From Candidatus Heimdallarchaeum aukensis (GTDB lineage: Archaea; Asgardarchaeota; Heimdallarchaeia; Heimdallarchaeales; Heimdallarchaeaceae): a stretch of 64,000 bases of DNA. Below are positions 13,283-49,610 of this stretch, piece after piece. The notes beneath the pieces are model-generated. The model saw only the letters and a program-made list of their open reading frames with translations, was not told the DNA's origin and did not search any database. The position numbers were made by a program, and so were the translations under genes. Within the stretch, counting starts at the first letter, position 1; each line of letters starts with the position of its first letter. The DNA lies in the NCBI GenBank assembly GCA_021513695.1, contig CP084166.1, positions 2,720,001 to 2,784,000 on the forward strand, written 5' to 3'.

Positions 13283-13301
13283 AAGAGGAGAGTAAAGAAA
13301 A

Positions 13302-17451: not shown

Positions 17452-19464
17452 GTGCGTGATAATTTTTTCTTTCTTAGAAGGTTAAATCTTTTGGGTAAAC
17501 TTGAGAAGTTCGATAAATATTTTTCTTCTATTGATTGGACTTCTATTTTGGATGAAATCAATGAACGCTTGTTTTTTTTTGGTGGAGGTTATAGTCGCAT
17601 TCTTGATTTATTTTCTGCTACTCTCATTGAACGTGGTATTTGGTTTGATTCTCGTTATTATATGAGCAATAAAGTTCTTAAAATTGTCTTTAAGGTTTTA
17701 TCTCAGTTTGCAGATAACAACCTTATTTTTTCTTTAGTTTCTGCTTTGGATGACTACGATTCTGATGTTCGTGCTGCTGTTGCTGAGCTGTTAGGTCTAA
17801 TTGGCCATTCTCTTGCTGTTGACCCCTTAATCAAATTACTCAAAGATGAGAATTGCTTTGTTCGCAGTAGTGTTGTCATAGCTTTGGGTAAGCTTGGTGA
17901 TCCTCGCTCCATTGCTGCATTTAATGATATTGCCTTATATGATGATTCCCAGGGTGTGCGTGCCGATGTTATACGATCCTTGAGAGAGATAGGTGATCCT
18001 CTTGGTGTTTCCCTTCTAATCGAAGCCCTAAAAGATGAGGATAGTATTGTTGTAAGAGCTGCTTTAGAAGTCTTGCTAGAATTGGTTGATTCTGGTTCTG
18101 TTGAGTTATTAATAGAAGCTCTAAAAGATAGGCATTGGTTTGTTCGCAGTAGTGTTGCAGAAGCGTTAGGCAAAATAGGAGACCCTAGAGCCATTGACTC
18201 CCTAGTAGCTGCCTTGAAAGATAAGGATTATTTTGTTCGCAGTAGTGTTGCAAAAGCTTTAAGTAAAATGGACGATTCTAGAGCCATTGACTCCCTAGTA
18301 GCTGCCTTAAAAGATAAAGATTTGCGAATGCGTCGTATTGCTGCAGAAGTGTTGGGAGAAATAGGTGACTCTAGGGCAGTTGAACCCTTAATAGATGTAG
18401 CTCTAAAAGATGAGGGTTTTTTTGTGCGTGAAAAAGCTATAATACTGTTAGGTGAACTAGGTGATTCTAGAGCAGTCAAGCCCTTAATAGAATTACTAAA
18501 AGATGAAGATTGGGAAGTGCGTCGTAATGTTGCAACAGCGTTGGGTAAAATAGGTGACCCTAGAGCCATTGAACCATTAATCAATGCAACTCTATATGAT
18601 GGTAATTGTGAAGTGTGTTATTTTTCTAAAGAGTCACTGATAAAAATAGGTGATATGAGTGCCGTTGAACCTCTAATAGAAGGACTGAAAGATAAGCATC
18701 CTTCTGTTCGTTGTGTTGCTGCTGAAGTGTTAGGTGAACTAGGTGATTCTAGAGCTGTCAAGCCCTTAATAGAATTACTAAAAGATGAAAATAGGAAAGT
18801 GCGTTGTGATGCTGCAGAAGCGTTAGGTAAAATAGGTGACCCTAGAGCCATTGAACCATTAATCAATGCAACATTATACGATGATGTTTTTCATGTGCGT
18901 AATAATGCTGCCTCGGCACTGAGAGAAATAGGCGTTTCTAGTGCTGTTGAACCATTAGTTAAACTAGCCTTATATGATGAAGATTCAGAAGTGCGTAAAA
19001 ATGCTGCTTATGCTTTAGGTGAAATATGTAATCCTAATGTCGTTGACCCATTAATCGATGCAGACCTATATGATGATGAGGAAGTGTGTGAAAATGCTTC
19101 CTCTGAGTTAGGTTTAAGATGTGATCCTAGTTCAGCTGAATTATTAGTAAATTTAACACTCTATGAGGAGGATTCAGTAGTGCGTGCAAGAGCTTTAAAT
19201 TTATTGGTTCAAATACGTGATTCAATTGCAATAGAAAAATTAATCAATATAGTGCTGTATGATGAAGATTCAGAAGTGCGTAAAAATGCCGCAAAAGCCT
19301 TAGGTGAGATAGGTGATACAAATTCATTTGAAACATTAATAATGAATGCCCTAGATGATGACGAGGGGAAAGTGACTAAAAATGTTGAAGAAGCTGTAAG
19401 AATAATGGGCGATCCTGAATTAATTGAATCACTAGAAGATGCCCTATTAAATAAGAGTTGGTAA
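17452..19464 (+). CDS. HEAT-repeat (PBS-lyase HEAT-like) protein, about 18 tandem repeats
   Basis: About 31-aa units such as VRxxAAEALGKIGDPRAIEPLIxALKDxD reiterate from residue ~95 to the C-terminus. The start is uncertain: GTG at 17452, with the first in-frame ATG far downstream. Confidence 0.8.
   Translation: MRDNFFFLRRLNLLGKLEKFDKYFSSIDWTSILDEINERLFFFGGGYSRILDLFSATLIERGIWFDSRYYMSNKVLKIVFKVLSQFADNNLIFSLVSALDDYDSDVRAAVAELLGLIGHSLAVDPLIKLLKDENCFVRSSVVIALGKLGDPRSIAAFNDIALYDDSQGVRADVIRSLREIGDPLGVSLLIEALKDEDSIVVRAALEVLLELVDSGSVELLIEALKDRHWFVRSSVAEALGKIGDPRAIDSLVAALKDKDYFVRSSVAKALSKMDDSRAIDSLVAALKDKDLRMRRIAAEVLGEIGDSRAVEPLIDVALKDEGFFVREKAIILLGELGDSRAVKPLIELLKDEDWEVRRNVATALGKIGDPRAIEPLINATLYDGNCEVCYFSKESLIKIGDMSAVEPLIEGLKDKHPSVRCVAAEVLGELGDSRAVKPLIELLKDENRKVRCDAAEALGKIGDPRAIEPLINATLYDDVFHVRNNAASALREIGVSSAVEPLVKLALYDEDSEVRKNAAYALGEICNPNVVDPLIDADLYDDEEVCENASSELGLRCDPSSAELLVNLTLYEEDSVVRARALNLLVQIRDSIAIEKLINIVLYDEDSEVRKNAAKALGEIGDTNSFETLIMNALDDDEGKVTKNVEEAVRIMGDPELIESLEDALLNKSW
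17750..19330. repeat. DNA-level tandem ~93-bp repeats encoding the HEAT units
   Basis: Nearly identical nucleotide blocks recur, for example ggtgaccctagagccattgaaccattaatcaatgcaac at about 18560 and again at about 18836. They produce long spurious antisense ORFs. Confidence 0.7.
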
Positions 19465-24078: not shown

Positions 24079-27021
24079 TTAGTTAGTTTTAGCGAAAACA
24101 AGACCTTTTTTCTTGAGTAATAGCAGTATTACTGTAATAAGACCAATGCCGCCCACTGCAGCTAGAGGAATAATATACATTAATGGATTAATTTCTTTTT
24201 CTACACTGTAATTTATTTCAAATATTTCAGTTTCTGTAGTTAAAGATGAGTCATCAGTTGCACTTATCTTGAAAATTAAGGTTCCTGATTTTTTGGGTAA
24301 TTCTATGTCAAAGAAGTAACAATCTGTCTCATTGTTGTAAAGCATTGTTTCAACCATCCATTCATCTTCTGTAGCAAATTTGTAAGAAAACAGGACATTT
24401 GTTATATTTCCATCATCGGTCACATTAGCTCTGATTCTTATCGCTTTTTCTTCTAGGACTAAAGGAGAAGAGAATGACGTATCTAACACGATAATTATTG
24501 GAGCTAAAGCTTTTGTAAACTCTATAATGGTAATATTAGATTCTGAAGAAAATCCAGCAAGATCATATGCTCTTACTTTGTATGTCAAGTTCCCTGAAGA
24601 AATAATGACCGGTATCGAAACTGTGTATAAAGATATAGAAGAGTCATATTTCATTGAAAGTATTTTCCAATCGCTTTCTTCATCAAATGTGTAATAAACT
24701 TCTACTGTAAGTAATCCTCCTTTATCTGTGACATTTGCTTGAACTTCAATATCATAACCCCCAGCTAGGTCAAGAGGACTTGTAATAGGAATTAGACTAA
24801 TATTTGGAGCTAATCCATCTGAATAATAACTAAAGGTAGAACTATTAACTGAGTTATCTAATGCGTCAGTTAAGGTAATATAAAATAGAACATCTGTATC
24901 CATATTTGTTCTGGGGATAGTAGAAATAAATTCATAACCTATTGGAATAGTATAATGCTTTAATACAATCTCATAATTTATTACAGAACCAGAATATAAA
25001 TCAGAATAATCTGTAATTTTTAGAGTGAAATTAGCTTCTGTGAAGTCAGATTGAGTTAACCCAAGTTCTAGTAAGTCGATGCTTAAAGTAAAACTTGTTG
25101 GTCTAGTTTCTCTATCAAAAATCAAAAATTCTCTTCCATCATCTAATTCTAACCAGATTCTAATATCTGCAGATTTCTCGTGAGTGATGTCAACGTTTAG
25201 TGTTGCTTCTGATACTCCTCCTCCTCTTTCAACATTTAAAGTTACAAGTGTTGTACTATTGTCTTCAATTAAGGCAGGTAAGTCTACAGCAGTAAAAGTT
25301 TCCATATAATCCATAAAAGAATTGTAGTTTATGACATAGGATATTGTGTTGTTCCACGTTATTCCTCCATCTGTACTATACCAAACAACAGAAGTTTTAA
25401 GGTCTGTGTAGTCGGTCGCATTAAATAACACTTGGACATCGGTAATATTTGAGATTACTGGGGGGTTAACAAGTAGTTTGCCCAAAATAGGTGCTGCACC
25501 ATCAGCATAATAGAAGTTGACTGAAGTGTTCCCCACATTGTCAAAAAAGTCATAAGTTTCAAAGAAGTACTCAACAAACGTTGTTTCGTTTGTTTCAGGT
25601 AGAATAACTGTAAAAGTTGTGGGGGATGTTCCTTCTTCTATTGGCGTTGTATTGACCATCTGTTTTCTTAAGAAAGTTGTTCCGTTAGGCATTGAGTATA
25701 AAATATCAACTCTTTTTGTTCCTGAAGGGTCAACAAATTTTGCAGTAATATTAACTTCTGAACTTGTTAATGTTACATTTTCTATTCCTGGAATAGATAT
25801 TCCGCCATAAATTGAAATTGAATTTACTCTGGGATTCATGTTATCTACTATGGCGGTTTTTAATCCAGATGATCCCTCTCTTCCTTTTTTAGAGTCAACT
25901 ATATCTGAAGCATTTATCATGTATAGAAGATTAGCTTCTACATTAGAAATATCGTCTATTTGAAGTGTTGTACGGTAACTTGCCGCTGTACTACTTAAAT
26001 CTGTCAAATATTCAAAGTTTTGCGATTTATAGTCTTCCTCACCTTCAATCTTATAGTATAAAGTTACACTAGTATCATTAATCGTTTCTACTCCATCATA
26101 ATCCGTAACTGTGACATTAAATACAAAACCAGTGTCTGCATTAATAACTGTTGGTACTTCATGAATGGTAATCTTGGGGGTCCAATCCATAAGAAATGTG
26201 TATGTTTCACTGGTCATTGAATTATTGAATAGATCAAACGAGGTAACATAATATTCAACCCAAGTGGGAGTGTTAGTTGTGACGCTAGGTGGAGTTATAT
26301 CTCCACTAAAATATTCTTCATATATACGCAAGTAATTAAATACTGGGTCATTTACATTAGGATGATCTCCAATATGTGTGATCGCAAATATCTTATATCC
26401 TAATACAGATTCTGTGCTATCATAATCTACAGGAAATGGTGAAACTTCTTCTGTCCCTCCATATGATCCATCAATATATCTTTGTTCCCATGTTTCTGAA
26501 GTAATATTAAAGGCTTCAATTGAGACATAGACAAGATTGTTACGACTTGTTTCCTTATCAATTGAGCAATATATTCTCTTTATTACATCTCCTTCATTAG
26601 CTATGAAAATGTATTCACCATATCTCCATTCTGTTTTATCATTCGTTTTGATTCCAGTGTCAGTTATGTATCCTGTTGATTCAAACTCTGTCTCATCCAC
26701 AACTAGTTGTAAATCTCTACTCATCGAAGCGTTAAACAAAGTATCGTTTAGTGAAATATACTTCCACCACAGAGTAGCATTCCTTATTTCATCTGAATCA
26801 CTTATTGTCAAAGAAACCGTTGCTGTTTCATTGCTATTTGGAGCATCAGGACTAACCTGTGGTGTTCCGAAGAAACTATATTCTGAACTGAATTTTATAG
26901 GTGTTTCTCTGTCTAAAGTTCGGTTTGAAGATAAGTAAATATTCAGCGATACTTCTACACTAGCAGTTATTAAGACAGCTGTAATTAAAATAATTTGGCT
27001 AAATTTCTTTAATTCTTTCAT
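24079..27021 (-). CDS. large cell-surface (S-layer-like) glycoprotein, N-terminal signal peptide and C-terminal TM anchor
   Basis: A signal-like N-terminus FSQIILITAVLITASVEVSL, dozens of N-x-S/T sequons, and a C-terminal LMYIIPLAAVGGIGLITVILLLLKKKG TM plus basic tail. No enzymatic motifs. Confidence 0.6.
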   Translation of the reverse strand: MKELKKFSQIILITAVLITASVEVSLNIYLSSNRTLDRETPIKFSSEYSFFGTPQVSPDAPNSNETATVSLTISDSDEIRNATLWWKYISLNDTLFNASMSRDLQLVVDETEFESTGYITDTGIKTNDKTEWRYGEYIFIANEGDVIKRIYCSIDKETSRNNLVYVSIEAFNITSETWEQRYIDGSYGGTEEVSPFPVDYDSTESVLGYKIFAITHIGDHPNVNDPVFNYLRIYEEYFSGDITPPSVTTNTPTWVEYYVTSFDLFNNSMTSETYTFLMDWTPKITIHEVPTVINADTGFVFNVTVTDYDGVETINDTSVTLYYKIEGEEDYKSQNFEYLTDLSSTAASYRTTLQIDDISNVEANLLYMINASDIVDSKKGREGSSGLKTAIVDNMNPRVNSISIYGGISIPGIENVTLTSSEVNITAKFVDPSGTKRVDILYSMPNGTTFLRKQMVNTTPIEEGTSPTTFTVILPETNETTFVEYFFETYDFFDNVGNTSVNFYYADGAAPILGKLLVNPPVISNITDVQVLFNATDYTDLKTSVVWYSTDGGITWNNTISYVINYNSFMDYMETFTAVDLPALIEDNSTTLVTLNVERGGGVSEATLNVDITHEKSADIRIWLELDDGREFLIFDRETRPTSFTLSIDLLELGLTQSDFTEANFTLKITDYSDLYSGSVINYEIVLKHYTIPIGYEFISTIPRTNMDTDVLFYITLTDALDNSVNSSTFSYYSDGLAPNISLIPITSPLDLAGGYDIEVQANVTDKGGLLTVEVYYTFDEESDWKILSMKYDSSISLYTVSIPVIISSGNLTYKVRAYDLAGFSSESNITIIEFTKALAPIIIVLDTSFSSPLVLEEKAIRIRANVTDDGNITNVLFSYKFATEDEWMVETMLYNNETDCYFFDIELPKKSGTLIFKISATDDSSLTTETEIFEINYSVEKEINPLMYIIPLAAVGGIGLITVILLLLKKKGLVFAKTN

Positions 27022-27297: not shown

Positions 27298-28347
27298 ATG
27301 AGTGTAAGAGCACCGGAAGATATTCTACTAGAAGTAAAAGGCTTAAAAACCTACTTCTTTACAGAAGAAGGAGTAGTGAAAGCTATAGAATCAATTAATT
27401 TTGTTGTTTATAAATCAGAAACATTAGGGCTAGTAGGAGAATCTGGATCTGGAAAAAGTGTAACTGCTCTAAGCATCTTAGGAATAGTACCGGACCCACC
27501 GGGAAAAGTCCTTGAAGGTGAAGTTATTTTCCATGGTCAAGATTTACGTAAATTAAGCCCTGCTGAAATGCGCAAAATCAGAGGAAACCAGATTGCCCAA
27601 GTATTTCAAGATCCAATGACCTCTTTGAACCCTGTTTTCACTGTTGGAGACCAAATCGGAGAAGCTATTATTCTTCATCAACAAGTTTCAAGGAAGGAAG
27701 CTAGAGAAAAAGCTATCAAAATTATGTCTCTTGTTGGTATTCCTTCTGCAGATGAACGTGTTGATAACTATCCCTTTGAGTTCTCAGGAGGTATGCGCCA
27801 AAGAGTTATGATTGCTATGGCTCTCAGTTGTAATCCTGAGCTTCTCATCGCAGACGAACCTACAACAGCTTTAGACGTAACTATTCAAGCTCAAATTCTC
27901 GAGCTTCTAAAAGCAACCAGTGAAGAGTTCGACATGAGTATTATTCTTATTACACATGATATGGGTGTTATTGCAGAGATGTGTGATCGTGTAGCAGTCA
28001 TGTATGCAGGGTATATTGCTGAAGTTAGCGACATAATGACTATTTTCAAGTCTCCTTTGCATCCTTATACCAAAGGTTTGCTCGGAGCTATTCCTCGTCC
28101 TGATGCGAAAAGAGAAGACTTGACGATTATTAGAGGAAGTATTCCTAATCTTATTAATCCTCCATCTGGATGTCGTTTCCATCCTCGATGTGATTACTGG
28201 ATTAAAGGCTTATGTGAAGTGAAAGTTCCTGAGTTTATAGAAATTGAACCAGGACATGAATTAATGTGCCACTTATACACTGAAGAAGGTAAAGCTTATC
28301 TGGAAGCTCACAAAGACCACCCCAGAATATCTTATGCAGCAAAGTAG
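27298..28347 (+). CDS. dppD: ABC peptide transporter ATP-binding protein DppD/OppD type
   Basis: Walker A GESGSGKS, signature FSGGMRQR, Walker [13 protein letters not shown] and the C-terminal oligopeptide-ABC Cys-rich extension. Confidence 0.9.
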
Positions 28348-28358
28348 GTGAATAAAGA

Positions 28359-29564
28359 ATGTCAACACCATCTATTATAGAAAAATTACAAGCAAAAAAA
28401 GGAAAAGATGCAAGAATTAAAACTAAAGAACTCGAGGAAGATGTTGTTCTCGAAGTTGAAAATTTAGCTAAATACTTTAAAATCCCTAATCCTATGGATA
28501 CAACTTGGTTCTTAGTTGCTTTTGTAGCCTCATTAGTAATATTCGCATTTTTCAAAATTATTGGACTTATTCTTATAGGATTGATTATTCTAGCTTATTT
28601 CATTATACCTTATATTCCACCATTCAATAAAAGACCAAAATTTGTTTATCTGAAAGCAGTTGATGGTCTAAACCTTAAAATTAGAAAACAAAAAATTGTA
28701 GGTCTTGTAGGAGAAAGTGGATGTGGAAAGAGTACAGCAGCTAGAACTATTTTACGTCTTCTCGAACCAACCAAAGGTTCTGTTTATTTCAGGGGTATAG
28801 ACATCAACAGATTAACTTCTGATGAATTAAAAGAAATGAGAAGATATATGCAGATAGTGTTTCAAGATCCTTATGCCAGTCTTAACCCAAGAGCAACAGC
28901 TTTTGATATTATATCTGAACCATATATCATTCATGGAGTAGCTTCTGGAGACGAAATAAGTATTAATGTTCTCAGATTGTTAAAGGAAGTAGGATTAGCT
29001 CCTCACCACGCTTACAGATATCCTCATGAGTTCTCTGGTGGTCAAAGACAAAGAATAGGAATTGCTCGTGCTTTAGCTTTAGAGCCTGATTTCATCATCA
29101 TGGACGAACCTGTAAGTAACTTAGACGTTTCTGTAAGAGCAGCAATTATTCAACTAATTCTAAAATTACAACAAAAAATGGGTTTGACTTATCTATTTAT
29201 TGCTCATGATCTTGCACTAGTTCGTATCCTCTGTGATGAAGTAAATGTTATGTATCTCGGAAAACTAATGGAAGCTGGAACAAGCGATGAAATCTTCGAG
29301 GATATGAAGCATCCTTATACAAAAGCTTTAGTTTCTGCAGTTCCAATAGCTGACCCAACAAAAAGATCTAAGAAAATATTCTTACAAGGAGATATTCCTA
29401 CACCAATTAATCCTCCACCAGGTTGCCGTTTCCAAACTCGATGTCCTCTTGTGAGTGACATCTGTCGAGCTGAAGATCCTAAACCTAAATATTTCAGTAA
29501 AACACATGTTGTATATTGCCACAATGTTGAGGGTGGAGAAGATTCTCCAAACGCTTTTGAATAA
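28359..29564 (+). CDS. dppF: ABC peptide transporter ATP-binding protein DppF/OppF type with ~55-aa hydrophobic insertion
   Basis: Walker A GESGCGKST, FSGGQRQR and IIMDEPVSNLD. Residues ~44-97 (TTWFLVAFVASLVIFAFFKIIGLILIGLIILAYFIIPYIPPF) are inserted between the first beta-strand and the P-loop. Confidence 0.85.
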   Translation: MSTPSIIEKLQAKKGKDARIKTKELEEDVVLEVENLAKYFKIPNPMDTTWFLVAFVASLVIFAFFKIIGLILIGLIILAYFIIPYIPPFNKRPKFVYLKAVDGLNLKIRKQKIVGLVGESGCGKSTAARTILRLLEPTKGSVYFRGIDINRLTSDELKEMRRYMQIVFQDPYASLNPRATAFDIISEPYIIHGVASGDEISINVLRLLKEVGLAPHHAYRYPHEFSGGQRQRIGIARALALEPDFIIMDEPVSNLDVSVRAAIIQLILKLQQKMGLTYLFIAHDLALVRILCDEVNVMYLGKLMEAGTSDEIFEDMKHPYTKALVSAVPIADPTKRSKKIFLQGDIPTPINPPPGCRFQTRCPLVSDICRAEDPKPKYFSKTHVVYCHNVEGGEDSPNAFE

Positions 29565-29653
29565 AACTTTCTTTTTTCCTTTTCAACCTTTTTTAAATAT
29601 AGCATAATTCTTATATTACTTATTATTATATTTCAATTGTTAAAATAAAATGC

Positions 29654-30421
29654 TTGGTGACCAAGTCAATGAGTAAGGTAAATGTACAAACAGCTCTAAA
29701 TAATATTGAAAGAATAAAGTCAGAATTAGAAGAATTAACTCAATTAGTTGTTGGGTTGAAAGAAGATCTTAATTATTCTGTAGAAAATAGTAAAAATTCA
29801 TTGTCAAGTATACTAAAAAAAATAGAAGAGAAAAGTGAAAATATAACCAATCTTGAAAATTCTAGAAAAGAATTACAACGTCAAATTAGCGAAAAAACTG
29901 GTGAATTAAACGAAAAGACATCAAAGAAGGATATTTTGGCCTCTGAAATACAAAGTAAAAGGCAAGACTTAGAAAAGCTTAATTCTGTCATTCTCACAGA
30001 AGAAAAGAATAAAACAGAACTGCAAACCGAAACAGTTGGAAAAGAGGAGAAGTTACAATCACTTAACAGAAAAATAGAAGAGAATCAAGTCTTAATTGAA
30101 GCAACAAAAGAAGAAACAGAGAAAGAAATTTTAGCCAAGAATCAAGAACTTATGAAATTAAGTGATGAAAAAGATAAAATTATTTCAAGAGCTAAAGCGC
30201 TAAAATATCTCCTGAAGAAAAACATTATCAGCTTACCAGAGATCAATGTAATCAGAAGTCTAAATGTACCAGGAGTAGATACTGAAGAAAACATTAGAAA
30301 AACTTCTGGCGTTTCTGACCAGATTGTAAGGAAAATTTTGATGGATCTGGATGAGAGAGGAATTATAACCTATGAAACATTATCGGGGAAGGTGCAAAAA
30401 CTAACTAGAATAGATATTTAG
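29654..30421 (+). CDS. coiled-coil protein with C-terminal winged-helix-like domain (paralogue A)
   Basis: About 180 aa of heptad-rich E/K/L/Q sequence, then LPEINVIRSLNVPGVDTEENIRKTSGVSDQIVRKILMDLDERGIITYE, which looks like a wHTH. No enzymatic motifs. Confidence 0.5.
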   Translation: MVTKSMSKVNVQTALNNIERIKSELEELTQLVVGLKEDLNYSVENSKNSLSSILKKIEEKSENITNLENSRKELQRQISEKTGELNEKTSKKDILASEIQSKRQDLEKLNSVILTEEKNKTELQTETVGKEEKLQSLNRKIEENQVLIEATKEETEKEILAKNQELMKLSDEKDKIISRAKALKYLLKKNIISLPEINVIRSLNVPGVDTEENIRKTSGVSDQIVRKILMDLDERGIITYETLSGKVQKLTRIDI

Positions 30422-30432
30422 GAGGAATAAGA

Positions 30433-31197
30433 ATGCAAGAAGTTGAACAACTTAGGTCTCATTTAGACAGAATTAGAGAATCAATAGACAACTTGAGCAA
30501 TAAGCTCAATAATAAAATCAATACAATTCGTTCTATTTCTTCTTCTACTGATGAAGAAATAAATGTAATTCCTGGATTCTTCGAAGAACTAGAAAAAAAA
30601 GAAAATGAACTAAATGAAGAAATCAAAAAACTAAAAGAAGACCTTCAAAATTTAGTAGATAATATACAAAAAACTGAAGAAGAAATCTCTCTCAATGAGG
30701 TTGAACTACAGAAGTTAAAAGAAAAAGAAAATGAAAAAAGAGAAGAGAAAGATAAGATTATTTCTGAAATAGCTGAGTTGAAAAACAAGAATATTCTTTT
30801 AGATACTCAAATAGAGGAAAAAACAAAAGAACTTGAAACATTAACAGAACAATATTCACAAGTACAAATTAATTCAAAACAACAGATAGAAGAACTAACA
30901 GCAAAAATTAGCGCACTTGAAGAGGAACTAAAGAAAGCGAAAGAAGATAATAAACTTATAGTTTACTTGATGGACGCAGGATTGATGGATGTTCCTGAAG
31001 CTGAAATAATCTCGGTAATTGCAGCAAGTACTGATGGATTAACATTAAACGAAATAAAGGAAAAAGTTTCTATCCCTAGCGTAAGAGTACAACCTACACT
31101 AAATAATTTACTTGAAAAAGTCTTAACTTATGATGCAAGAAGAGAGAAATACCAGATTAGTTCAATAGTACAAGAAGAAATGAACAATAGATCCTAA
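30433..31197 (+). CDS. coiled-coil protein with C-terminal winged-helix-like domain (paralogue B)
   Basis: Same architecture as the upstream gene, 11 nt downstream and preceded by GGAGGA. C-terminal DGLTLNEIKEKVSIPSVRVQPTLNNLLEKVLTY. Confidence 0.5.
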   Translation: MQEVEQLRSHLDRIRESIDNLSNKLNNKINTIRSISSSTDEEINVIPGFFEELEKKENELNEEIKKLKEDLQNLVDNIQKTEEEISLNEVELQKLKEKENEKREEKDKIISEIAELKNKNILLDTQIEEKTKELETLTEQYSQVQINSKQQIEELTAKISALEEELKKAKEDNKLIVYLMDAGLMDVPEAEIISVIAASTDGLTLNEIKEKVSIPSVRVQPTLNNLLEKVLTYDARREKYQISSIVQEEMNNRS

Positions 31198-32375: not shown

Positions 32376-33038
32376 TTAAACTAATGAGGTATTTATTAAA
32401 TAAGTAGAGAAAATAGCATTCATTAATTCATTTCTTTCTCTGATTAACTCAGTGATGATTTCTCCAAATCTTTCGTCTCTTATTTCTTCTCTAACTTCAT
32501 TCAACAGTATTTCGTTAAGTCCTTTGTTTAAACATAAAGTTATTTTATTGCATTTATACAAGATTGCTAGTAATAGTTTGGTGTGCATGGTTGCTTTTTT
32601 CGAATTAATTATAGTCTCTTGTAATTGATGCATTAGTTCAATTTTTACGCGTTCTTCTGTACAGAAAATTTTTCTTCTTTTAAAAAATAGAAACCTTTTT
32701 TCAGATTTAGTTAGTATTCCGCTCTTAATCATAACTTCAATAAAAGATTCAAGTATTTGATTTGATTTTATGCCTAATGATCTTATCCAAAACCTAATAT
32801 CGCTTTCATGTTCATTTTGCATTTCTTCAATAATATTCTTAAAAATAGGTTGTGTAGTTTCTGATGAAATAATCTCTATCTTATTATCATCTCTAATTTT
32901 TATTAAGTTTAACATCTCTAAATCGATAATTATAGATGAAGGTAAACCATAAAAAATAAGGTCACTACTACTTTTTTCTATCCTTCCTCTCCTTTGATCA
33001 ATTAACAAGATTATTAACTTCTCTGTTAGTAATAACAT
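32376..33038 (-). CDS. GPP34 (GOLPH3/Vps74-like) family protein
   Basis: The N-terminal LLLTEKLIILLIDQRRGRI...YGLPSSIIIDLEMLNLIKIRDD follows the GPP34 pattern (LxEELLLLALDDxxGK...LAGAxLAELxLxGRI). The FWIRSLG...SGILTKSEKRFLFFKRRKI and LLLAILYKCNKI blocks are also in family order. Confidence 0.45.
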   Translation of the reverse strand: MLLLTEKLIILLIDQRRGRIEKSSSDLIFYGLPSSIIIDLEMLNLIKIRDDNKIEIISSETTQPIFKNIIEEMQNEHESDIRFWIRSLGIKSNQILESFIEVMIKSGILTKSEKRFLFFKRRKIFCTEERVKIELMHQLQETIINSKKATMHTKLLLAILYKCNKITLCLNKGLNEILLNEVREEIRDERFGEIITELIRERNELMNAIFSTYLINTSLV

Positions 33039-41580: not shown

Positions 41581-42040
41581 AGAGTTAAAAAAGAAGTTTC
41601 TAGACAATATAAAAACGGCTCAAGAAGAGAAAATTCAAGATAATCAGATTTTTATTAAAATCGACAAAGAGGATATCAAAACTGTTTCTAAATTTATCAA
41701 GGAGCAATTTGATGACGTAAATAAAATACTAGAGCAAGTTTTTGCTATAGATTTTCCTGATAGAAATGAAATGGAAATGATTTACACCTGGTGGTTTATC
41801 GAATATCATGCCTTAGTTCATTTTCGTGTAATCTTACCATATGATGATCTGAAAGTTGTATCTATTCAAGATGATTGGGTCGCTGCTAATTGGCATGAGC
41901 GAGAAACTTGGGAAATGTTTGGGATAGATTTTGAAGGACATCCAAACTTAAAGCAATTTTTGCTCTCAGACGAACTTTTCGGTAAACATCCTATGAGGAA
42001 ATCTTTCAAAATTGAGCATAATCCGGAGGAAGCAAAATGA
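41570..42040 (+). CDS. nuoC: complex I subunit C (30 kDa)
   Basis: NuoC-like length and conserved WHERETWEMFGIDFEGHPNL block. AGGAGGT upstream. Confidence 0.8.
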   Translation: MNVEELKKKFLDNIKTAQEEKIQDNQIFIKIDKEDIKTVSKFIKEQFDDVNKILEQVFAIDFPDRNEMEMIYTWWFIEYHALVHFRVILPYDDLKVVSIQDDWVAANWHERETWEMFGIDFEGHPNLKQFLLSDELFGKHPMRKSFKIEHNPEEAK

Positions 42041-43152
42041 CAGAAAATAAAGAAAGAAGTTCAAGTTTAGTTTCTTTTAGCTATGGTCCTCAACATCCTG
42101 GAACACATCCTTATTCCTTACTTTTAACTGTTGATGGAGATCGAATAGAAAAAGTAGAAGCACAGATTGGTTATGTTCATAGAGGATTAGCTAAACAAGC
42201 TGAATCAAGAACATTTATCCAAGCTTTACCAATAATGGAAAGATCTTGTTTCATTGATTCAGTTAACCATCAATTTGGTTATGTCATGGCAGTGGAAAAA
42301 TTAGCCGGTATAGAAGTACCAGAAAGAGCAGAATACCTTAGAGTTATTGCTGCTGAATTATCACGCATGAACTCTTTGATAAGCTGGTTTGGTGGTTACG
42401 CAGCTGAAACTGGAATTAACTCAGCTTTCATGTGGGCTTGGAAAGATAGAGAAATGTTTCTTGACCTATTTGGCCATCTTGCAGGAAGCAGAGTTTCTGT
42501 AATGTACTTAACTATCGGAGGAGTTAGGTGGGATTGGAATGATAAGCTAACCAATTTAACTTGGGAAATTATTGATTATATGGAAGAGAGACTAAAAATA
42601 CACAAAAAGCTGGTTATGAAGAATTCAATATTCAAAAAACGAACTAAAGGTGTAGGAGTCGTTTCAAAAGAGAAAGCACTAGAATATGCATTTACAGGGC
42701 CTAACTTAAGAGCTTCAGGAGTACAAGGCGATATTAGAATTTTAGAACCCTATAGTGTTTATGATCATTTCAAATTTACTCCTAAAGTAATGACTGAGGG
42801 AGATAACTGGGCTAGAACCATGATTCGTCTACACGATATTGAAACTAGTATGGAGATTCTAAAACAAGCTCTTCCAGAGATTCCCGAAGGAGAATACAAG
42901 ACTAAAGTTCCTCTAAAATTAAGAGCTAATGCTGGCGAGGCATATGCAAGAGTAGAGTTGTCTAGAGGAGTCATGGGTTATTATATTAGAACAGTGGAGG
43001 ACAAATCAACAAAACCCTATAGAGTTAAAATAAGAGGACCTTCATTCTCACACTTCCAAATTGTAGAAGATATTCTAGTTGGAACACATATGGCTGATAT
43101 TCCAATAATCAAAGGTTCTCTAGATGTATGTCCAGCAGATTTAGATAGATAA
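42037..43152 (+). CDS. nuoD: complex I subunit D (49 kDa), no NiFe-binding cysteines
   Basis: SFSYGPQHPGTHPYSLLLTVDGDRI and the RGxEK-like core. The N- and C-termini lack the RxCGxC and DPCxxC motifs of hydrogenase large subunits. Confidence 0.85.
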   Translation: MTENKERSSSLVSFSYGPQHPGTHPYSLLLTVDGDRIEKVEAQIGYVHRGLAKQAESRTFIQALPIMERSCFIDSVNHQFGYVMAVEKLAGIEVPERAEYLRVIAAELSRMNSLISWFGGYAAETGINSAFMWAWKDREMFLDLFGHLAGSRVSVMYLTIGGVRWDWNDKLTNLTWEIIDYMEERLKIHKKLVMKNSIFKKRTKGVGVVSKEKALEYAFTGPNLRASGVQGDIRILEPYSVYDHFKFTPKVMTEGDNWARTMIRLHDIETSMEILKQALPEIPEGEYKTKVPLKLRANAGEAYARVELSRGVMGYYIRTVEDKSTKPYRVKIRGPSFSHFQIVEDILVGTHMADIPIIKGSLDVCPADLDR

Positions 43153-43165
43153 GAAGGTGAAAGTA

Positions 43166-44140
43166 ATGAATACAGATTTTCTATTTATAAAAGTCGCAGT
43201 ATTTCCTGGTGTCCTTTTCGTACTATTTGGATGTCTTTATTTGATGTATTTCGAAAGGAAAACAATAGCGAGAATTCATGGAAGAATAGGGCCACAATAT
43301 GTAGGCTATGGAGGTTTGTTACAAACAATAGCTGATCTAATGAAATTAATGTTTAAGGAATGGATATTCCCAAAAACAGCAAAGAAAGCAGCTCTATTTC
43401 TAACCCCTATTGCTCTATTTCTACTTGCTTTTCTACCCCTATCGGTTGTTCCATGGGGAGAAAATTGGTATGTAGCAGATTTCAGTGTTACATTGATCTT
43501 TGCATTTGTGGTTATAGCTGCTATTCCTTTCTTAAGCCTTCTACTTGGTTGGTCCTCAGGAAGTAAATATTCTTTGATAGGCGGATACAGAGCTGCATCA
43601 CAACAAATTGTGTTTGAGGTTCCTTTATTTCTTTCTGCATTAACTCCTGCTATACTTGCAAATAGTTTGAGTTTAATGGATATTACAAAAAATCAGAAAA
43701 TATGGTTCCTTGTACTGAATCCAATCGCTGCTTTCGTCTTTTTCGTTTCTATGCTTGCAATGATGGAAAGACAACCTTTTGATATTCCTGAAGCAGAATC
43801 CGAATTAGTATTTGGTTGGAAAACAGAGTTAAGTGGTATTTTCTTTGGTTGGTCAATATTCGCTGGTTACACTATTATGATCGGAGGAAGTGCTCTATTT
43901 GTTGTTTTATTCATGGGTGGTTTTAACGGGCCAGGAAATAATTTAGGTGTCCTATGGTTTATGCTCAAACTAGCTTTGATATGGCTTATTCTTTTCGCTA
44001 TGAGAGCAGTTTTACCAAGATATAGAATGGATCAGATACTAAGAATGTCTTGGAGGTTGATGATACCACTTTCTTTGGTCAGTATTGGCTTATCAATCGG
44101 GTTACTATTTGCATTCCCCAATTTCTTCAGAGGTGTATAA
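43166..44140 (+). CDS. nuoH: complex I subunit H (ND1-like)
   Basis: The ERKTIARIHGRIGPQYVGYGGLLQTIADLMKL region and eight TM helices. The track start at 43157 is GTG; the likely start is ATG 43166 after AAGGTGA. Confidence 0.85.
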   Translation: MNTDFLFIKVAVFPGVLFVLFGCLYLMYFERKTIARIHGRIGPQYVGYGGLLQTIADLMKLMFKEWIFPKTAKKAALFLTPIALFLLAFLPLSVVPWGENWYVADFSVTLIFAFVVIAAIPFLSLLLGWSSGSKYSLIGGYRAASQQIVFEVPLFLSALTPAILANSLSLMDITKNQKIWFLVLNPIAAFVFFVSMLAMMERQPFDIPEAESELVFGWKTELSGIFFGWSIFAGYTIMIGGSALFVVLFMGGFNGPGNNLGVLWFMLKLALIWLILFAMRAVLPRYRMDQILRMSWRLMIPLSLVSIGLSIGLLFAFPNFFRGV

Positions 44141-44183
44141 TTTGGCAGATAAAAACTTTCTAACTAACATAAGATCGTTATAC

Positions 44184-44627
44184 ATGGCTATTGCACAGAT
44201 GTTCAAGAAACCATTCACAACAAAGTATCACACAACAAACAAAGAAAGAATAGTGGAATACGACAGATTGCGTGGAGAACTTATAATGAACTTACCCAAA
44301 TGTGTGGGTTGTACACTATGTGTTCAAGCTTGTCCTAATGCTGCATTGAAAATGGTTTCATATGACAATGGAAATCCAAGAAACAAAAAGAAACATGTTC
44401 CTTCTTTTAATTTAGGACTCTGCAGTTTTTGCGCTTTATGTGTAGAAGCTTGTCCTTATGATGTCCTAGAAATGGGTAAAGTGTACGATAGAGCCTATGC
44501 CACTATGGAAGATATGCTTCGTTCTCCTGAGGAGATGTATGAGGATTGGATTGAACAGAAAGGAGAAGAAGATGAAATAGATCCTGAAGAAATTGAAACT
44601 GACAAAATCGATATCGAGGAGGATTAA
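44184..44627 (+). CDS. nuoI: complex I subunit I (2x[4Fe-4S] ferredoxin-type)
   Basis: CVGCTLCVQACP and CSFCALCVEACP. The track start at 44085 overlaps nuoH; ATG 44184 avoids the overlap. An acidic C-terminal tail. Confidence 0.8.
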   Translation: MAIAQMFKKPFTTKYHTTNKERIVEYDRLRGELIMNLPKCVGCTLCVQACPNAALKMVSYDNGNPRNKKKHVPSFNLGLCSFCALCVEACPYDVLEMGKVYDRAYATMEDMLRSPEEMYEDWIEQKGEEDEIDPEEIETDKIDIEED

Positions 44628-44628
44628 A

Positions 44629-46086
44629 ATGGTTGTTAGTACAGTTTTGTTATTAATTTCTATAATAGCTCCTTTAGTTATAGGATTCTTATTATTCATT
44701 CCATTCCTTCAAAAATATGCAGGGTGGATAACAGCTGGAGTATCTACTGTCGTTTTAGCCTTCTTAATTACTGCTTCTGTTCCAATATGGAACAGTTCTG
44801 TAACAAAAGTGGAACTCCAATGGGCTCCAGCAGCTGGTCTGTTAATGGGATTCTTGTTGGACAATCTATCAGCACTTATTGCATTATTGATAGCAGTTGT
44901 TTCTACCTTAACAGCTTTCTATTCCATAAAATATATGGAGCATGAAGAGAGAAAAGGATTATACTTTAGCTTATACAACTTCTTCTTTGCAGGTATGCTC
45001 GGAGTAGTTCTATCTACAAACCTCCTAGAGTTTTTCTTCTTCTGGGAACTTATGCTAATTCCTAGTTACTTAATGATTGTTTATTGGGGTACTAAAGCTA
45101 AAGCAGCAAAAGTTGCATTGAAGTATTTCTTCTATACTCAAGTGGGTTCTATTGGAATAATTGTTAGTTTTGCAATTATTGCCTTTTATGGTAACAGTTT
45201 AAACATTGCAGAAATTGCAACTAATCTCTCAATATCTTCACTTCCAAATGCTATACTCTACTTAACCTTTATACTACTGATGATAGGTTTAGCTGTAAAA
45301 CTCGCTATCTTTCCTTTCCAAAATTGGTTACCTGATGCTCACGGAGAAGCTCCAACACCAATAAGTGTATTGCTCTCTGCAGTTATGATCGAAACAGCAG
45401 CTTATGCAATAGTTCGTATTGCTATGCAATTTTATGGAGAGATTTTCGAAACATCTAGGATTGTCTTTGAGAGTGTAGGAGTATTTACCCTCTTGTATGG
45501 AGGCTTCTTAGCTTTAAGGCAAACAGATGTTAAAAGACTACTCGCTTATTCTTCTGTAAGCCAAATGGGTTATGTCTTTATTGGTTTATCAACATACAAC
45601 CAATTTGGTGTTTCAGGAGGATTATTCCACATATTAGCTCATGGATTTGGAAAAGGGATACTCTTCATGACTGCAGGAATTCTCATACATGAAGTGAAAA
45701 CTAGAGATATTACTGCAATGGGTGGATTAGGTAGAAAAATGCCTTTCACTGCTATAATTTCATTTATTGCAGCATTAAATCTCGCTGGAACACCCCCACT
45801 AAGTGGATTCTTCAGTGAATGGTTTATCTTTAGTGGCGCATTCTATCAAGCAACAACAGAGTTTGTAATTCTAGGTATTTTTCTATTACTAGGTTCAATA
45901 TTAAGCGCAGCTTATATGCTACGTTTTCTGTGGAAAGTGTTCCTTGGTCCTTTACCAGGAGAACTAGAAAAGACAAAAGAAACAAAGCTATTACTTTGGG
46001 TTCCAGGAGCGATTTTAGCACTATTGGCTATATTCTTCGGTATCTTTGCTAATGTTGCAATTGAACTTTTCAGTACAGTGATTTGA
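44629..46086 (+). CDS. additional antiporter-like subunit, NuoM/ND4-like (or MrpD-like)
   Basis: WLPDAHGEAPTPISVLLSAVMIETAAYAIVRI is a NuoM-type motif. The ATG at 44629 directly follows the nuoI stop, and GAGGAGGA lies upstream. Confidence 0.75.
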   Translation: MVVSTVLLLISIIAPLVIGFLLFIPFLQKYAGWITAGVSTVVLAFLITASVPIWNSSVTKVELQWAPAAGLLMGFLLDNLSALIALLIAVVSTLTAFYSIKYMEHEERKGLYFSLYNFFFAGMLGVVLSTNLLEFFFFWELMLIPSYLMIVYWGTKAKAAKVALKYFFYTQVGSIGIIVSFAIIAFYGNSLNIAEIATNLSISSLPNAILYLTFILLMIGLAVKLAIFPFQNWLPDAHGEAPTPISVLLSAVMIETAAYAIVRIAMQFYGEIFETSRIVFESVGVFTLLYGGFLALRQTDVKRLLAYSSVSQMGYVFIGLSTYNQFGVSGGLFHILAHGFGKGILFMTAGILIHEVKTRDITAMGGLGRKMPFTAIISFIAALNLAGTPPLSGFFSEWFIFSGAFYQATTEFVILGIFLLLGSILSAAYMLRFLWKVFLGPLPGELEKTKETKLLLWVPGAILALLAIFFGIFANVAIELFSTVI

Positions 46087-46095
46087 GGTGAAAAA

Positions 46096-48126
46096 ATGGA
46101 AGCTATAATAATTACAGTATTACTAACAGTTTTGGTTCCTCTTGTAGGAAGCTTGATAAGTCCATTATTAAATAAAATATTGAAAGAGAAAATACACTTT
46201 TATGCTATAGCCATAGCAGTTATAACTGCTGCACTTGGAATAACTTCTTTTTCAATTGGTTTAAGAATGGAGGAAATAGAGCCTTGGACATTCAATTGGA
46301 TTAAAGATCTATTAAATCCTGGAGAGTTTATACAAGGAGGAATTTTTCTAGATAAATTCTCGTTACTTATGCTAATGCTTGTTTCAGTAATAGCCATGTT
46401 GATTGTAATCTTTAGCCATGATTATATGCACGGTGATGATGCTTTACCAAGATATTATTTCTGGATACTATTCTTTATTGGCAGTATGCTAGGGCTAATA
46501 GTATCAGACAACTTGATTCAGTTGTTTATATTCTGGGAAGGTGTAGGATTAGCCAGTTATGGACTAATTGGTTTCTGGAACAGAGAAAATGAAAATGTGA
46601 AGAGTGGTACAAAAGCTTTTCTTGTTACAAGAGCTGGAGATATGGGTTTACTTGCTGCGATAATATTGATTTACTTTAATGTAGGAACACTAAGTTTCTC
46701 TGAATTCACCTCTGATTTTGGAAATATTTTAGGTGAAAGTAAATTAATAGTGTTAGTAGGAGTCTTAATACTCGTTGGAATTGCAGGTAAATCTGCTCAG
46801 TTTCCTTTGCAGTTCTGGTTACCGGAAGCTATGGCAGGTCCTTCAACCGTATCGGCTCTCATCCATGCAGCAACAATGGTTAAAGCTGGTATTTATCTCG
46901 GAGGAAGATTCTTACCTTATTTCTTAACCGCAGCGCCTTTATATGCTGAGCAATTAGAAGTTCTCTTCTTAATAATTGCAGCTGTTGGAGTATTCACAGC
47001 TTTTCTTGCAGCATCTATAGGCATGGCAGCGAGAGAATTCAAAAAAATACTGGCTTTTTCAACTATTTCGCAATTAGGATACATGTTGCTTGCAATTGGT
47101 GTTGCTGGTCTGCTTCATAATGGAGAAGATGCTCTATTTGCTTCTATCTTCCACATGACCTCCCATATGTTCTTCAAAGCATTACTCTTCCTTGGTGCAG
47201 GAGCTATCTTACATTCTGTAACAACTACGAAGGATATCTTTGAAATGGGAGGACTGAGAAAATATATGCCTAAAACAACATTGTTGTTCAGTGCAGGAGC
47301 ATTATCTTTAGCTGGAATACCTCCTTTTGCAGGTTTCTTCTCCAAAGAGACAATATTTTCAAAAATTATTGAGTATATTGAAGAAACTTCATCAGTATGG
47401 GGGTGGATATTCCTGTCATTAGCAGTAATTGCAGCGATAATGACATTATTTTACACGATGCGAATGATAGGTGTAGTTTTCTTTGGAGAAAGTGGAGAAC
47501 ATGTAAAAGAAGCTGAAAAACATGGACATCTTCATGATCCTAGTTGGTTTATGATGGGCCCTTTACTAGTTTTAGCAATAGGATCAACAATATGGGGATT
47601 CTTTGGCGGATTAATAGAACATTGGTTTTATCACGGAGATCAAACCTATGGAGAATGGATAGGCCATATCTTCAGAAATGGATGGGGATGGTTAATATTA
47701 GCTATAATTGTAATTGTTGGTGGAATACCAGGATACCTAATTTACTTTAGAAAAGTAAACAATACTTTCTTTGCCAACTCGTTCTTACAGAAGTTTCTGT
47801 ATAATCGTTGGTATTGGAATTCCTTAATGTTAACTGTTTTCGTTGACGGAACAACAAAAGTTGGAGATCTGCTTCAATATCCAGAAAAAGCACTTGATCA
47901 TGGAACAAACTCCCTTGCAAGTGGAGTTCTTGCTACTGCTAATGCTTTCGAAGTTCTTGATCGCAAAATAGTTGACGGTGCAGTAAACAAAATAGCTTAT
48001 GGTTTCCAATGGATGGGGATGAAACTTCGAAGATTCGAAACAGGCTTCATATCTCAATACCTGTGGATAGGAGCATTTGGTTTTGTTATTCTATTAATTG
48101 GAGTAACACTTGCTATTATATTGTGA
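46096..48126 (+). CDS. nuoL: complex I subunit L (ND5-like, with long C-terminal extension)
   Basis: WLPEAMAGPSTVSALIHAATMVKAGIYL, 676 aa with the C-terminal region typical of NuoL. GAGGTGAAAAAATG start context. Confidence 0.85.
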   Translation: MEAIIITVLLTVLVPLVGSLISPLLNKILKEKIHFYAIAIAVITAALGITSFSIGLRMEEIEPWTFNWIKDLLNPGEFIQGGIFLDKFSLLMLMLVSVIAMLIVIFSHDYMHGDDALPRYYFWILFFIGSMLGLIVSDNLIQLFIFWEGVGLASYGLIGFWNRENENVKSGTKAFLVTRAGDMGLLAAIILIYFNVGTLSFSEFTSDFGNILGESKLIVLVGVLILVGIAGKSAQFPLQFWLPEAMAGPSTVSALIHAATMVKAGIYLGGRFLPYFLTAAPLYAEQLEVLFLIIAAVGVFTAFLAASIGMAAREFKKILAFSTISQLGYMLLAIGVAGLLHNGEDALFASIFHMTSHMFFKALLFLGAGAILHSVTTTKDIFEMGGLRKYMPKTTLLFSAGALSLAGIPPFAGFFSKETIFSKIIEYIEETSSVWGWIFLSLAVIAAIMTLFYTMRMIGVVFFGESGEHVKEAEKHGHLHDPSWFMMGPLLVLAIGSTIWGFFGGLIEHWFYHGDQTYGEWIGHIFRNGWGWLILAIIVIVGGIPGYLIYFRKVNNTFFANSFLQKFLYNRWYWNSLMLTVFVDGTTKVGDLLQYPEKALDHGTNSLASGVLATANAFEVLDRKIVDGAVNKIAYGFQWMGMKLRRFETGFISQYLWIGAFGFVILLIGVTLAIIL

Positions 48127-48135
48127 GGTGAAAAA

Positions 48136-49605: not shown

Positions 49606-49610
49606 AAAAA

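Follow-up and report, generated by a model that had tools for sequence, protein, structure and literature searches.

An ordered gene pair conserved across Asgard archaea very probably encodes a heterodimeric coiled-coil rod with paired winged helices

Two adjacent genes, A and B, in a 64,000-nucleotide (nt) stretch of Candidatus Heimdallarchaeum aukensis (contig CP084166.1, positions 2,720,001 to 2,784,000; hereafter the window, whose first letter is position 1 in all coordinates below) very probably encode, judging from their sequences, a heterodimeric rod in which two long coiled-coil chains end in winged-helix (wH) domains. The pair is an undescribed family built from familiar parts, and it is conserved as a unit in at least six named Asgard lineages, with a fixed rod length, stutters and rod-end motifs. 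No known prokaryotes are more closely related to eukaryotes than the Asgard archaea, and proteins of obscure function that occur lineage-wide among these archaea are candidates for cell-biological machinery. The window itself has a G+C content of ~30%, and its genes are 92–99% identical, at the protein level, to their counterparts in Candidatus Heimdallarchaeum endolithica PR6.

The gene pair and its expression signals

The two genes and the signals around them are as follows; pLDDT values refer to the AlphaFold2 (AF2) models described below.

29669–30421, + strand: gene A, A-type coiled-coil and wH protein, 250 amino acids (aa); open reading frame (ORF), start set from the homologues, AF2 pLDDT 90
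30433–31197, + strand: gene B, B-type coiled-coil and wH protein, 254 aa; ORF, 69 homologues, AF2 pLDDT 87
30421–30425, + strand: GGAGG, Shine-Dalgarno-like site for gene B, overlapping the gene A stop and ending 7 nt before the gene B ATG
29565–29668, + strand: intergenic region between an upstream OppF-like gene and gene A, by sequence reading

The mechanical ORF call of gene A begins at TTG 29654, and the first-pass annotation had described two adjacent genes of 254 and 255 aa. Because the homologues begin with MS[KR]VN (29 of 29 full-length A proteins) and nearly all are 250 aa long, we moved the start to ATG 29669, which is most likely the true one; the adjacency and the 254 aa of gene B stand, and gene A has 250 aa. 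A GGTGA (29656–29660) is found 8 nt 5′ of this ATG, and the spacer between the two genes is 11 nt. Upstream, the OppF-like stop is followed by three T-runs (29572–29577, 29580–29583 and 29590–29594) and by a TATA-like TTTAAATA at 29592–29599, with TTAAAATAAA at 29640–29649. The T-runs and the TTTAAATA box could be read as an archaeal terminator and promoter and, since they follow the OppF-like stop, the pair probably has a promoter of its own.

Conservation as an ordered unit

Word-indexed searches returned 69 B-type clusters, whose full-length members have ~250 aa, and 30 A-type clusters, and every named cluster came from Heimdallarchaeota or was labelled 'Asgard group'. The B alignment, used to scan one genome of every GTDB species, gave 26 loci; gene A lay directly upstream of B in each of the 25 Heimdall-type loci with upstream DNA, at gaps of 3–15 nt. 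HMMER scoring of 1.84 billion representative proteins against a profile of some 90 C-terminal residues gave 61 matches at E ≤ 1e-3; about 45 of these proteins were 237–254 aa long with the domain at ~160–250, and the named members belonged to Hermodarchaeota, Baldrarchaeia, Thorarchaeota, Ranarchaeia, Hodarchaeales, Odinarchaeum yellowstonii LCB_4 and other Heimdallarchaeota. Several longer matches (P0105, P0125, P0128, P0129, P0154 and P0155) were set aside as multi-domain winged helix-turn-helix (wHTH) proteins of MarR type or as unrelated proteins. A third word-indexed search, with a superfamily C-terminal alignment (A4), yielded only 4 fragments and no new taxonomic breadth.

On contigs read for seven of the named lineages, a size-matched partner gene adjoins the member on the same strand, either 3–21 nt away or overlapping it by 4 nt. 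Typing with hidden Markov models (HMMs) identified the first gene as A-like and the second as B-like in the Thor, Baldr, L029/L030 and L032 pairs, and the second gene as B-like in L033; for Odin and Hodarchaeales the adjacency was read on the contigs, the HMM typing covering the other lineages. Wherever both genes were complete (29 loci), A preceded B without exception, at distances between −4 and +21 nt, and the pair has been kept even in the 1.4-Mb Odin genome. On the question raised earlier, whether the pair is conserved as a unit, the loci that could be checked show no scattered single homologues: the genes are adjacent in the 25 Heimdall-type loci and in Thor, Baldr, Odin, Hodarchaeales and others. 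On these sequence comparisons, A and B form an ordered pair conserved as a unit and, as far as sampled, restricted to Asgard archaea. One B homologue, P0024, carries a precomputed match to PF28175, an accession outside the Pfam copy used here.

Two coiled-coil rods with matched stutters

AF2 monomer models of A and B, built with family alignments, place an uninterrupted single helix (residues 3–183 in A, 2–181 in B) before a short linker and a winged helix, with pLDDT values of 90 and 87, respectively. The features of the rods are listed below.

29675–30217, + strand: A rod, single helix, residues 3–183, heptad coiled coil (AF2, period-3.5 peak, register phases)
30436–30975, + strand: B rod, single helix, residues 2–181, with stutters at ~28–36 and ~130–138 (AF2, period-3.5 peak, register phases)
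29756–29782, + strand: A stutter 1, residues ~30–38, core spacing 4-4 (register shift, core table)
30062–30088, + strand: A stutter 2, residues ~132–140 (register shift, core table)
30194–30241, + strand: A rod-end/junction motif KALKYLLKKNIISLPE, residues 176–191 (homologue alignment)
30949–30999, + strand: B rod-end/junction motif NKLIVYLMDAGLMDVPE, residues 173–189 (homologue alignment)

Both rods are genuine coiled coils. Family-conserved hydrophobic residues within positions 1–180 give a power peak of 2.4–2.9 at period 3.5, against at most 0.38 at the other periods tested, and the core positions, mainly I/V/L at a and mainly L at d, follow a dimer-type pattern. The earlier description of ~170 aa of continuous heptad repeats holds as to the coiled coil, which extends over ~180 aa, but not as to strict continuity, the heptads being broken by two stutters. 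The heptad phase runs 5, 2, 6 along A and 3, 0, 4 along B, a constant offset of two residues, and therefore both stutters sit at equivalent positions in the two proteins; cross-correlation of the A and B hydrophobicity profiles likewise peaks at +2 (0.405).

L178, L181, K183, P190 and E191 are invariant in the A junction, as are N173, I176–M180, G183, L184 and D186–E191 in the B junction (39 sequences), and a joint alignment reveals a junction signature, YL-x7-[VLI]PE, common to A, B and distant Asgard relatives. The proline that opens the winged helix falls at residue 187–188 in most proteins of both types, A-like and B-like, whatever the lineage, so that the rod length is conserved; at 180 residues and 0.15 nm per residue, the modelled rod would be about 27 nm long. 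Mean pairwise identity within the Heimdall families is 70% for the N-terminal 20 aa of A, 60–76% for the junction and 71% for the winged helix, compared with 46–53% for the rod. Members can be recognized by a heptad rod of ~188 aa, two stutters, the YL-x7-[VLI]PE junction and a C-terminal winged helix of ~60 aa, all of which A and B possess.

Ancient paralogues that probably pair with each other

Direct comparison of A with B by BLASTP gave nothing significant (E 0.31). Aligned as family profiles, they match along the final 100 columns (hhalign 94.2%, E 1.2e-7), and the first-pass suggestion that they are paralogues is borne out at that level. Sequence profiles therefore identify A and B as distant, ancient paralogues on one blueprint. 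Because the A-like-then-B-like order recurs across lineages, the duplication is older than the split of the sampled Asgard lineages, the gene order having been kept since.

Whether the two chains pair with each other can be judged from the residues that would face one another. Charged and polar residues are frequent at the core a and d positions of both chains. Among 51 core layers, an A:B pairing would contain a single like-charged layer, compared with 8 for A:A and 7 for B:B, the latter including layers formed by K92, E99, K102 and K106 of B, which fall within 15 residues; the count of layers with no hydrophobic residue at all is 6 for A:B, 17 for A:A and 18 for B:B. The same hetero-over-homo trend is seen in seven distant pairs. 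Salt-bridge scores at the e and g positions are positive for A:B in 23 of 23 Heimdall pairs, with means (of 40) of +3.3 for A:B, −1.6 for A:A and +1.7 for B:B. The core-layer pattern supports hetero- over homodimers, leaving the register unproven. The strict adjacency of the genes, and the Shine-Dalgarno-like site of B within so short a spacer, likewise speak for chains that are inherited and expressed together. From the stutters, which match and sit asymmetrically, and from the equal rod lengths, we infer that the heterodimer is parallel and in register.

Several points weigh against this arrangement. The gain in A:B core layers is what two independent patterns would be expected to give, register-shifted A:B heterodimers score as well as in-register ones in the core-layer test, and the e/g signal is weak, with a slip of +7 scoring almost as high. 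The matched stutters and equal lengths, moreover, could have been inherited from an ancestor by two chains that homodimerize separately. Under that alternative, A and B would each homodimerize or act alone, and their adjacency would be a relic of an old tandem duplication: common ancestry alone predicts the matched register and stutters, the core complementarity does not exceed independence, and B:B has a slightly positive e/g score. Yet the order and the gaps of −4 to +21 nt have survived class-level divergence while all neighbours changed, each homodimer would have to bury 7–8 like-charged core layers, such as those at the B residues named above, and the rod lengths are equal; we consider separate homodimers improbable.

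Winged-helix domains and their possible ligands

Both C-termini fold in the AF2 models as a canonical winged helix with the order H1-S1-H2-H3-S2-S3, to which B alone adds a short C-terminal helix.

30236–30418, + strand: A winged-helix domain, residues 190–250
30991–31188, + strand: B winged-helix domain, residues 187–252, including the short C-terminal helix (AF2, Foldseek)

The ~70-aa wHTH-like C-terminal domain claimed for both proteins is thus a confidently folded winged helix, by AF2 and Foldseek, and not a disordered tail. Foldseek matches the B domain to wHTH domains of IclR, MarR, TrmBL2 and ArsR, and the C-terminal profile gives weak wHTH matches in the PDB, the best being TtgV (E 0.005); overall, the best structural and sequence matches are DNA-binding regulators (IclR-type BlcR and TtgV, MarR, TrmBL2, Fur and ArsR). 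In A, the domain displays a canonical helix-turn-helix pattern, KTSGVSxxxxRxxLxxL. The recognition helix of B, VRVQPxxNxLL, is rich in R, Q and N and invariant across the Heimdall family, and residues of the R/T/N/K/Q type are retained in the B-like recognition helices of other lineages. The domains sit in the broad MarR/IclR/TrmB-like wHTH fold class, outside each of those families: compared with known regulators, the wHTH fold is present, but the scores fall below the family cut-offs (TrmB 15.8 bits against 25.6, with TFIIE_alpha, RPA_C and MarR_2 also under theirs), and the AF2 models reveal no effector domain, the remainder of each chain being coiled coil.

Against DNA as the ligand stand the net charges of the winged helices, −5 in B and −2.4 in A within the Heimdall family and ~0 superfamily-wide, those of the whole proteins (−7 to −18), an acidic wing in B, and A-like recognition helices that vary between lineages, often carrying D or E. 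All of this would suit a protein partner that co-evolves with the head no less well. We therefore hold a protein ligand for the head and a nucleic-acid ligand to be nearly matched possibilities, each somewhat short of even and protein slightly ahead, and any other ligand to be a distant third; the weight given to nucleic acid comes mainly from the invariant, R/Q/N-rich recognition helix of B.

These data also bear on a simpler explanation, in which the pair is a heterodimeric DNA-binding regulator or nucleoid protein and the coil merely brings a pair of wHTH domains together on a pseudo-palindromic site. The identity of the best wH matches, the canonical helix-turn-helix pattern of A and the residues kept in B-like recognition helices all fit it, as do the MutS-like and beta-CASP nuclease genes that neighbour the pair in Thor and Hodarchaeales. 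A rod of 180 residues and conserved length, however, far exceeds what dimerization needs; the winged helices are neutral to acidic on strongly acidic proteins, the A-like recognition helices are variable and often acidic, no conserved target operon adjoins the pair, and regulator families all score below their Pfam cut-offs. A regulator of this kind therefore strikes us as unlikely; if the pair were one, it would be an ordinary regulator, though unusual in shape.

Searches against known families

No Pfam, NCBIfam, PADLOC or PHROG family matched A or B at cut-off, a full-length sequence search of the PDB returned coiled-coil noise alone, and the literature on Asgard, coiled-coil and winged-helix proteins yielded no description of the family. 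Low-scoring matches to SMC, Rad50, JetC, LmuB, MAD, ATG and tape-measure proteins involve the coiled coil only. Thus NCBIfam SMC_prok_A/B, ASRP and Rad50 scored 20–32 bits against cut-offs of 300–1087, all within residues ~3–198 (the coil), and the PADLOC and PHROG matches, at 13–25 bits, were confined to the arm regions of JetC, LmuB and DndD and to tape-measure proteins. The Pfam search found no SMC_N or ABC domain in A or B, and hence no ATPase head; the AF2 helix makes no turn such as an SMC or Rad50 fold-back arm would need, and no conserved Gly, Pro or Cys hook lies mid-rod. The kleisin combination (ScpA/Scc1) of a C-terminal wH with an N-terminal helical domain that bridges an SMC dimer, encoded together with SMC, was likewise lacking, and MksE matched 2 of 27 sequences at E 0.017. 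Neither the full proteins nor their C-terminal domains matched the Pfam families Mnd1 or TBPIP, and their winged helix is not N-terminal. The first-pass statement that the proteins have no ATPase, SMC-hinge or ESCRT-III-like features agrees with these searches, in which no such family reached threshold.

An ESCRT-related component, either a CdvB-like fusion of ESCRT-III with wH or an ESCRT-II-like wH subunit, deserves mention, as CdvB likewise joins a helical region of ~170 aa to a C-terminal wH and coiled-coil plus wH proteins such as arCOG09748 are encoded in archaeal ESCRT loci (PMC10936438). No Snf7 match appeared at E ≤ 1, however, nor any ESCRT-II or Vps family match; the AF2 models show an extended helix in place of the ESCRT-III hairpin, and no Vps4 or ESCRT-III gene occurs in any neighbourhood read. 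This reading is already largely refuted, and we give it the least credence of all.

Intermediate-filament (IF) proteins offer another comparison. A:B heterodimers might, like keratin types I and II, join head-to-tail through their rod ends and build a nucleotide-independent cytoskeleton whose filaments bear wH tails. The probable obligate heterodimer of paralogues, the conserved stutters, one of them ~45 residues before the rod end, and rod ends better conserved than the rod itself are all in keeping with such an assembly, and relatives match the crescentin rod and Filament families weakly, below threshold. Those matches (Filament 19–20 bits against 40, Rod_CreS 19–22 against 100, and none at all for A and B) are nevertheless ordinary coiled-coil noise, and the rod reaches about half the IF length and lacks linkers. 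We thus doubt that the pair builds filaments and put the prospect low.

Genomic neighbourhood

The genes flanking the pair vary by lineage. Those of the window that concern us are the following.

12275–13279: OppB
13302–14360: OppC
27298–28347: OppD
28359–29564, + strand: OppF-like ABC ATPase
32376–33038, − strand: GPP34/GOLPH3-family protein (Pfam E 2e-18)

Every Heimdall-type locus with enough sequence has OppD and OppF immediately 5′ of gene A, and the pair shows no Opp association outside that clade. In one such locus, L002, the order is OppB-OppC-OppD-OppF-A-B; in the window, ~13 kb of other genes separate OppBC (12275–14360) from OppDF (27298–29564), and A/B remained beside OppDF. The Opp operon is therefore split in this genome, its four genes being contiguous in relatives such as L002. 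Between OppF and A the distance is ~100–250 nt in most loci, compared with 1–1.7 kb in L018 (4438–5402), L024 (5508–7233) and L026 (5454–7225). In Thor (L027, 9462–15744) and Hodarchaeales (L035, 1197–6786) the pair adjoins an orthologous block, with identities between the two of 46% for a radical SAM protein, 35% for Prok-JAB, 47% for a beta-CASP RNase and 39% for MutS_V/HHH. We regard both the Opp and the Thor/Hodarchaeales associations as inherited synteny, with a functional meaning that is weak at most.

The constant company of OppDF nonetheless raises the question of whether A and B are accessory subunits of an ABC-type ATPase, be it OppD/OppF or a split SMC/Rad50-like machine, with the wH docking on the ATPase heads as a kleisin wH does. 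OppD-OppF has stayed directly upstream even after the 13-kb split, a SufC-type ABC ATPase lies upstream in Baldr, and the weak MksE matches point the same way. There is, however, no adjacent ABC ATPase in Thor, Odin, Hodarchaeales, L029/L030, L032 or L033; the T-runs and TATA-like box come between OppF and A, the two genes are 1–1.7 kb apart in the three loci named above, OppD/F are ordinary oligo_HPY transport ATPases, and, given the abundance of ABC ATPase genes, two chance associations call for no explanation. Such a role appears very improbable.

The genes on the downstream side, an Fe-S protein (Fer4_16) and the GPP34 gene, stand beside the pair only in the window and in H. endolithica. 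Since they are shared only with this closest relative, we take them to be incidental, and a functional link of the pair to them was rejected.

Other features of these neighbourhoods are recorded here in their own right. The OppF-like protein, 75–80% identical over its whole length in more than 20 Heimdall genomes, has an N-terminal extension of ~95 aa with a long hydrophobic, transmembrane-like stretch, WFLVAFVASLVIFAFFKIIGLILIGLIILAYFIIPYI, a feature not usual for a soluble subunit of a transport ATPase. The radical-SAM gene of Thor lies on the same strand as gene B and overlaps its end, and in L032 (7687–8593; Heimdallarchaeota contig WJIK01000071) a small GTPase of the Arf/Ras family and a 99-aa ORF follow the pair, also on the same strand. 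Within the 13-kb stretch that splits the Opp genes, the window encodes a 670-aa protein consisting nearly throughout of HEAT/PBS-lyase-type repeats (17452–19464, + strand; HEAT_2 E 7e-114). A 980-aa protein without Pfam match (24079–27021, − strand) has a hydrophobic segment at its N-terminus, a hydrophobic anchor at its C-terminus and many N-x-S/T sequons and, from these features, looks like a surface glycoprotein of the S-layer type. A complex-I-like cluster (42037–51041, + strand), with a 49-kDa subunit, a NuoH-type NADHdh and four Proton_antipo_M subunits, belongs to the ordinary context and has no bearing on the pair.

Discussion

Of the readings weighed here, we tentatively favour, at somewhat less than even confidence, that A and B form an obligate parallel in-register heterodimeric rod with a two-wH head, working as a fixed-length adaptor or tether. 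The A and B chains would pair in parallel and in register into a rod of ~180 residues and ~27 nm, whose C-terminal end would bear two different winged helices lying next to each other and whose N-terminal end would form a conserved tip. The head would dock one partner and the tip another, making the dimer a structural, non-enzymatic connector; because neither protein has a catalytic domain, a structural adaptor of fixed length is the most economical reading. The likeness to cytoskeletal or segregation adaptors drawn in the first-pass annotation is an analogy. If the head binds nucleic acid, the adaptor would be linked to the chromosome. It counts against a tether that, on contigs read across Asgard lineages, no conserved neighbour gene indicates a partner.

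A bolder version of the tether, which we consider a long shot, would make the A:B rod an Asgard-specific scaffold that connects the chromosome, through the wH head, to a cytoskeletal or membrane structure at the N-terminal tip, and/or polymerizes through its ends, in the service of a core cell function. Such a function would explain why the pair has been retained in the 1.4-Mb Odinarchaeum genome, and the rod would then be a prokaryotic analogue, possibly a forerunner, of rod-shaped eukaryotic adaptors, among them the lamin/IF-type nucleoskeleton, Hop2-Mnd1-like dimers and kinetochore rods. Should A and B tether DNA to a structure or form filaments, they would be a new entry on the sparse list of Asgard parts that organize the cytoskeleton or the chromosome and, as two small soluble proteins, an easy biochemical target.

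Among known systems, the regulators of the TrmB/TrmBL2, MarR and IclR type carry their wHTH at the N-terminus, followed by a short dimerization helix and then a ligand-binding domain; in A and B the wH comes after a 180-aa rod and is neutral to acidic, and an effector domain is lacking. Kleisin and KITE winged helices (Scc1/ScpA, MksE) differ in that A and B have no kleisin N-terminal domain and no adjacent SMC gene, and carry the coil in the same chain as the wH. Archaeal ESCRT loci encode proteins with a coiled coil and a C-terminal wH, of undefined mechanism (arCOG09748; compare the wH of CdvB; PMC10936438); although unrelated to A and B, they are the nearest thing to the pair in the literature found. 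Proteins of the arCOG09748 type possess extra N-terminal and central globular domains and belong to Vps4/ESCRT-III loci, and A and B have neither.

The closer likenesses are eukaryotic in kind. IF rods (keratin I/II heterodimers and lamins, as well as bacterial crescentin) resemble A and B in the parallel in-register dimer of paralogues, which for A and B is the arrangement proposed above, in a conserved stutter, in conserved rod ends and in a globular C-terminal tail; they differ, apart from the longer rod with linkers, in that their tail is an Ig fold rather than a wH. Hop2-Mnd1, an accessory of eukaryotic meiotic recombination, consists of paralogues of ~200–250 aa that form an obligate parallel coiled-coil heterodimer with two wH domains side by side at one end. 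Its winged helices are N-terminal and its coil is made of three leucine zippers, whereas A and B have C-terminal winged helices and one helix with two stutters, and no test run detected homology between the two. By analogy, A and B would act most like such rod-shaped paralogue heterodimers of eukaryotes, Hop2-Mnd1 and keratin I/II, while standing outside all of these families.

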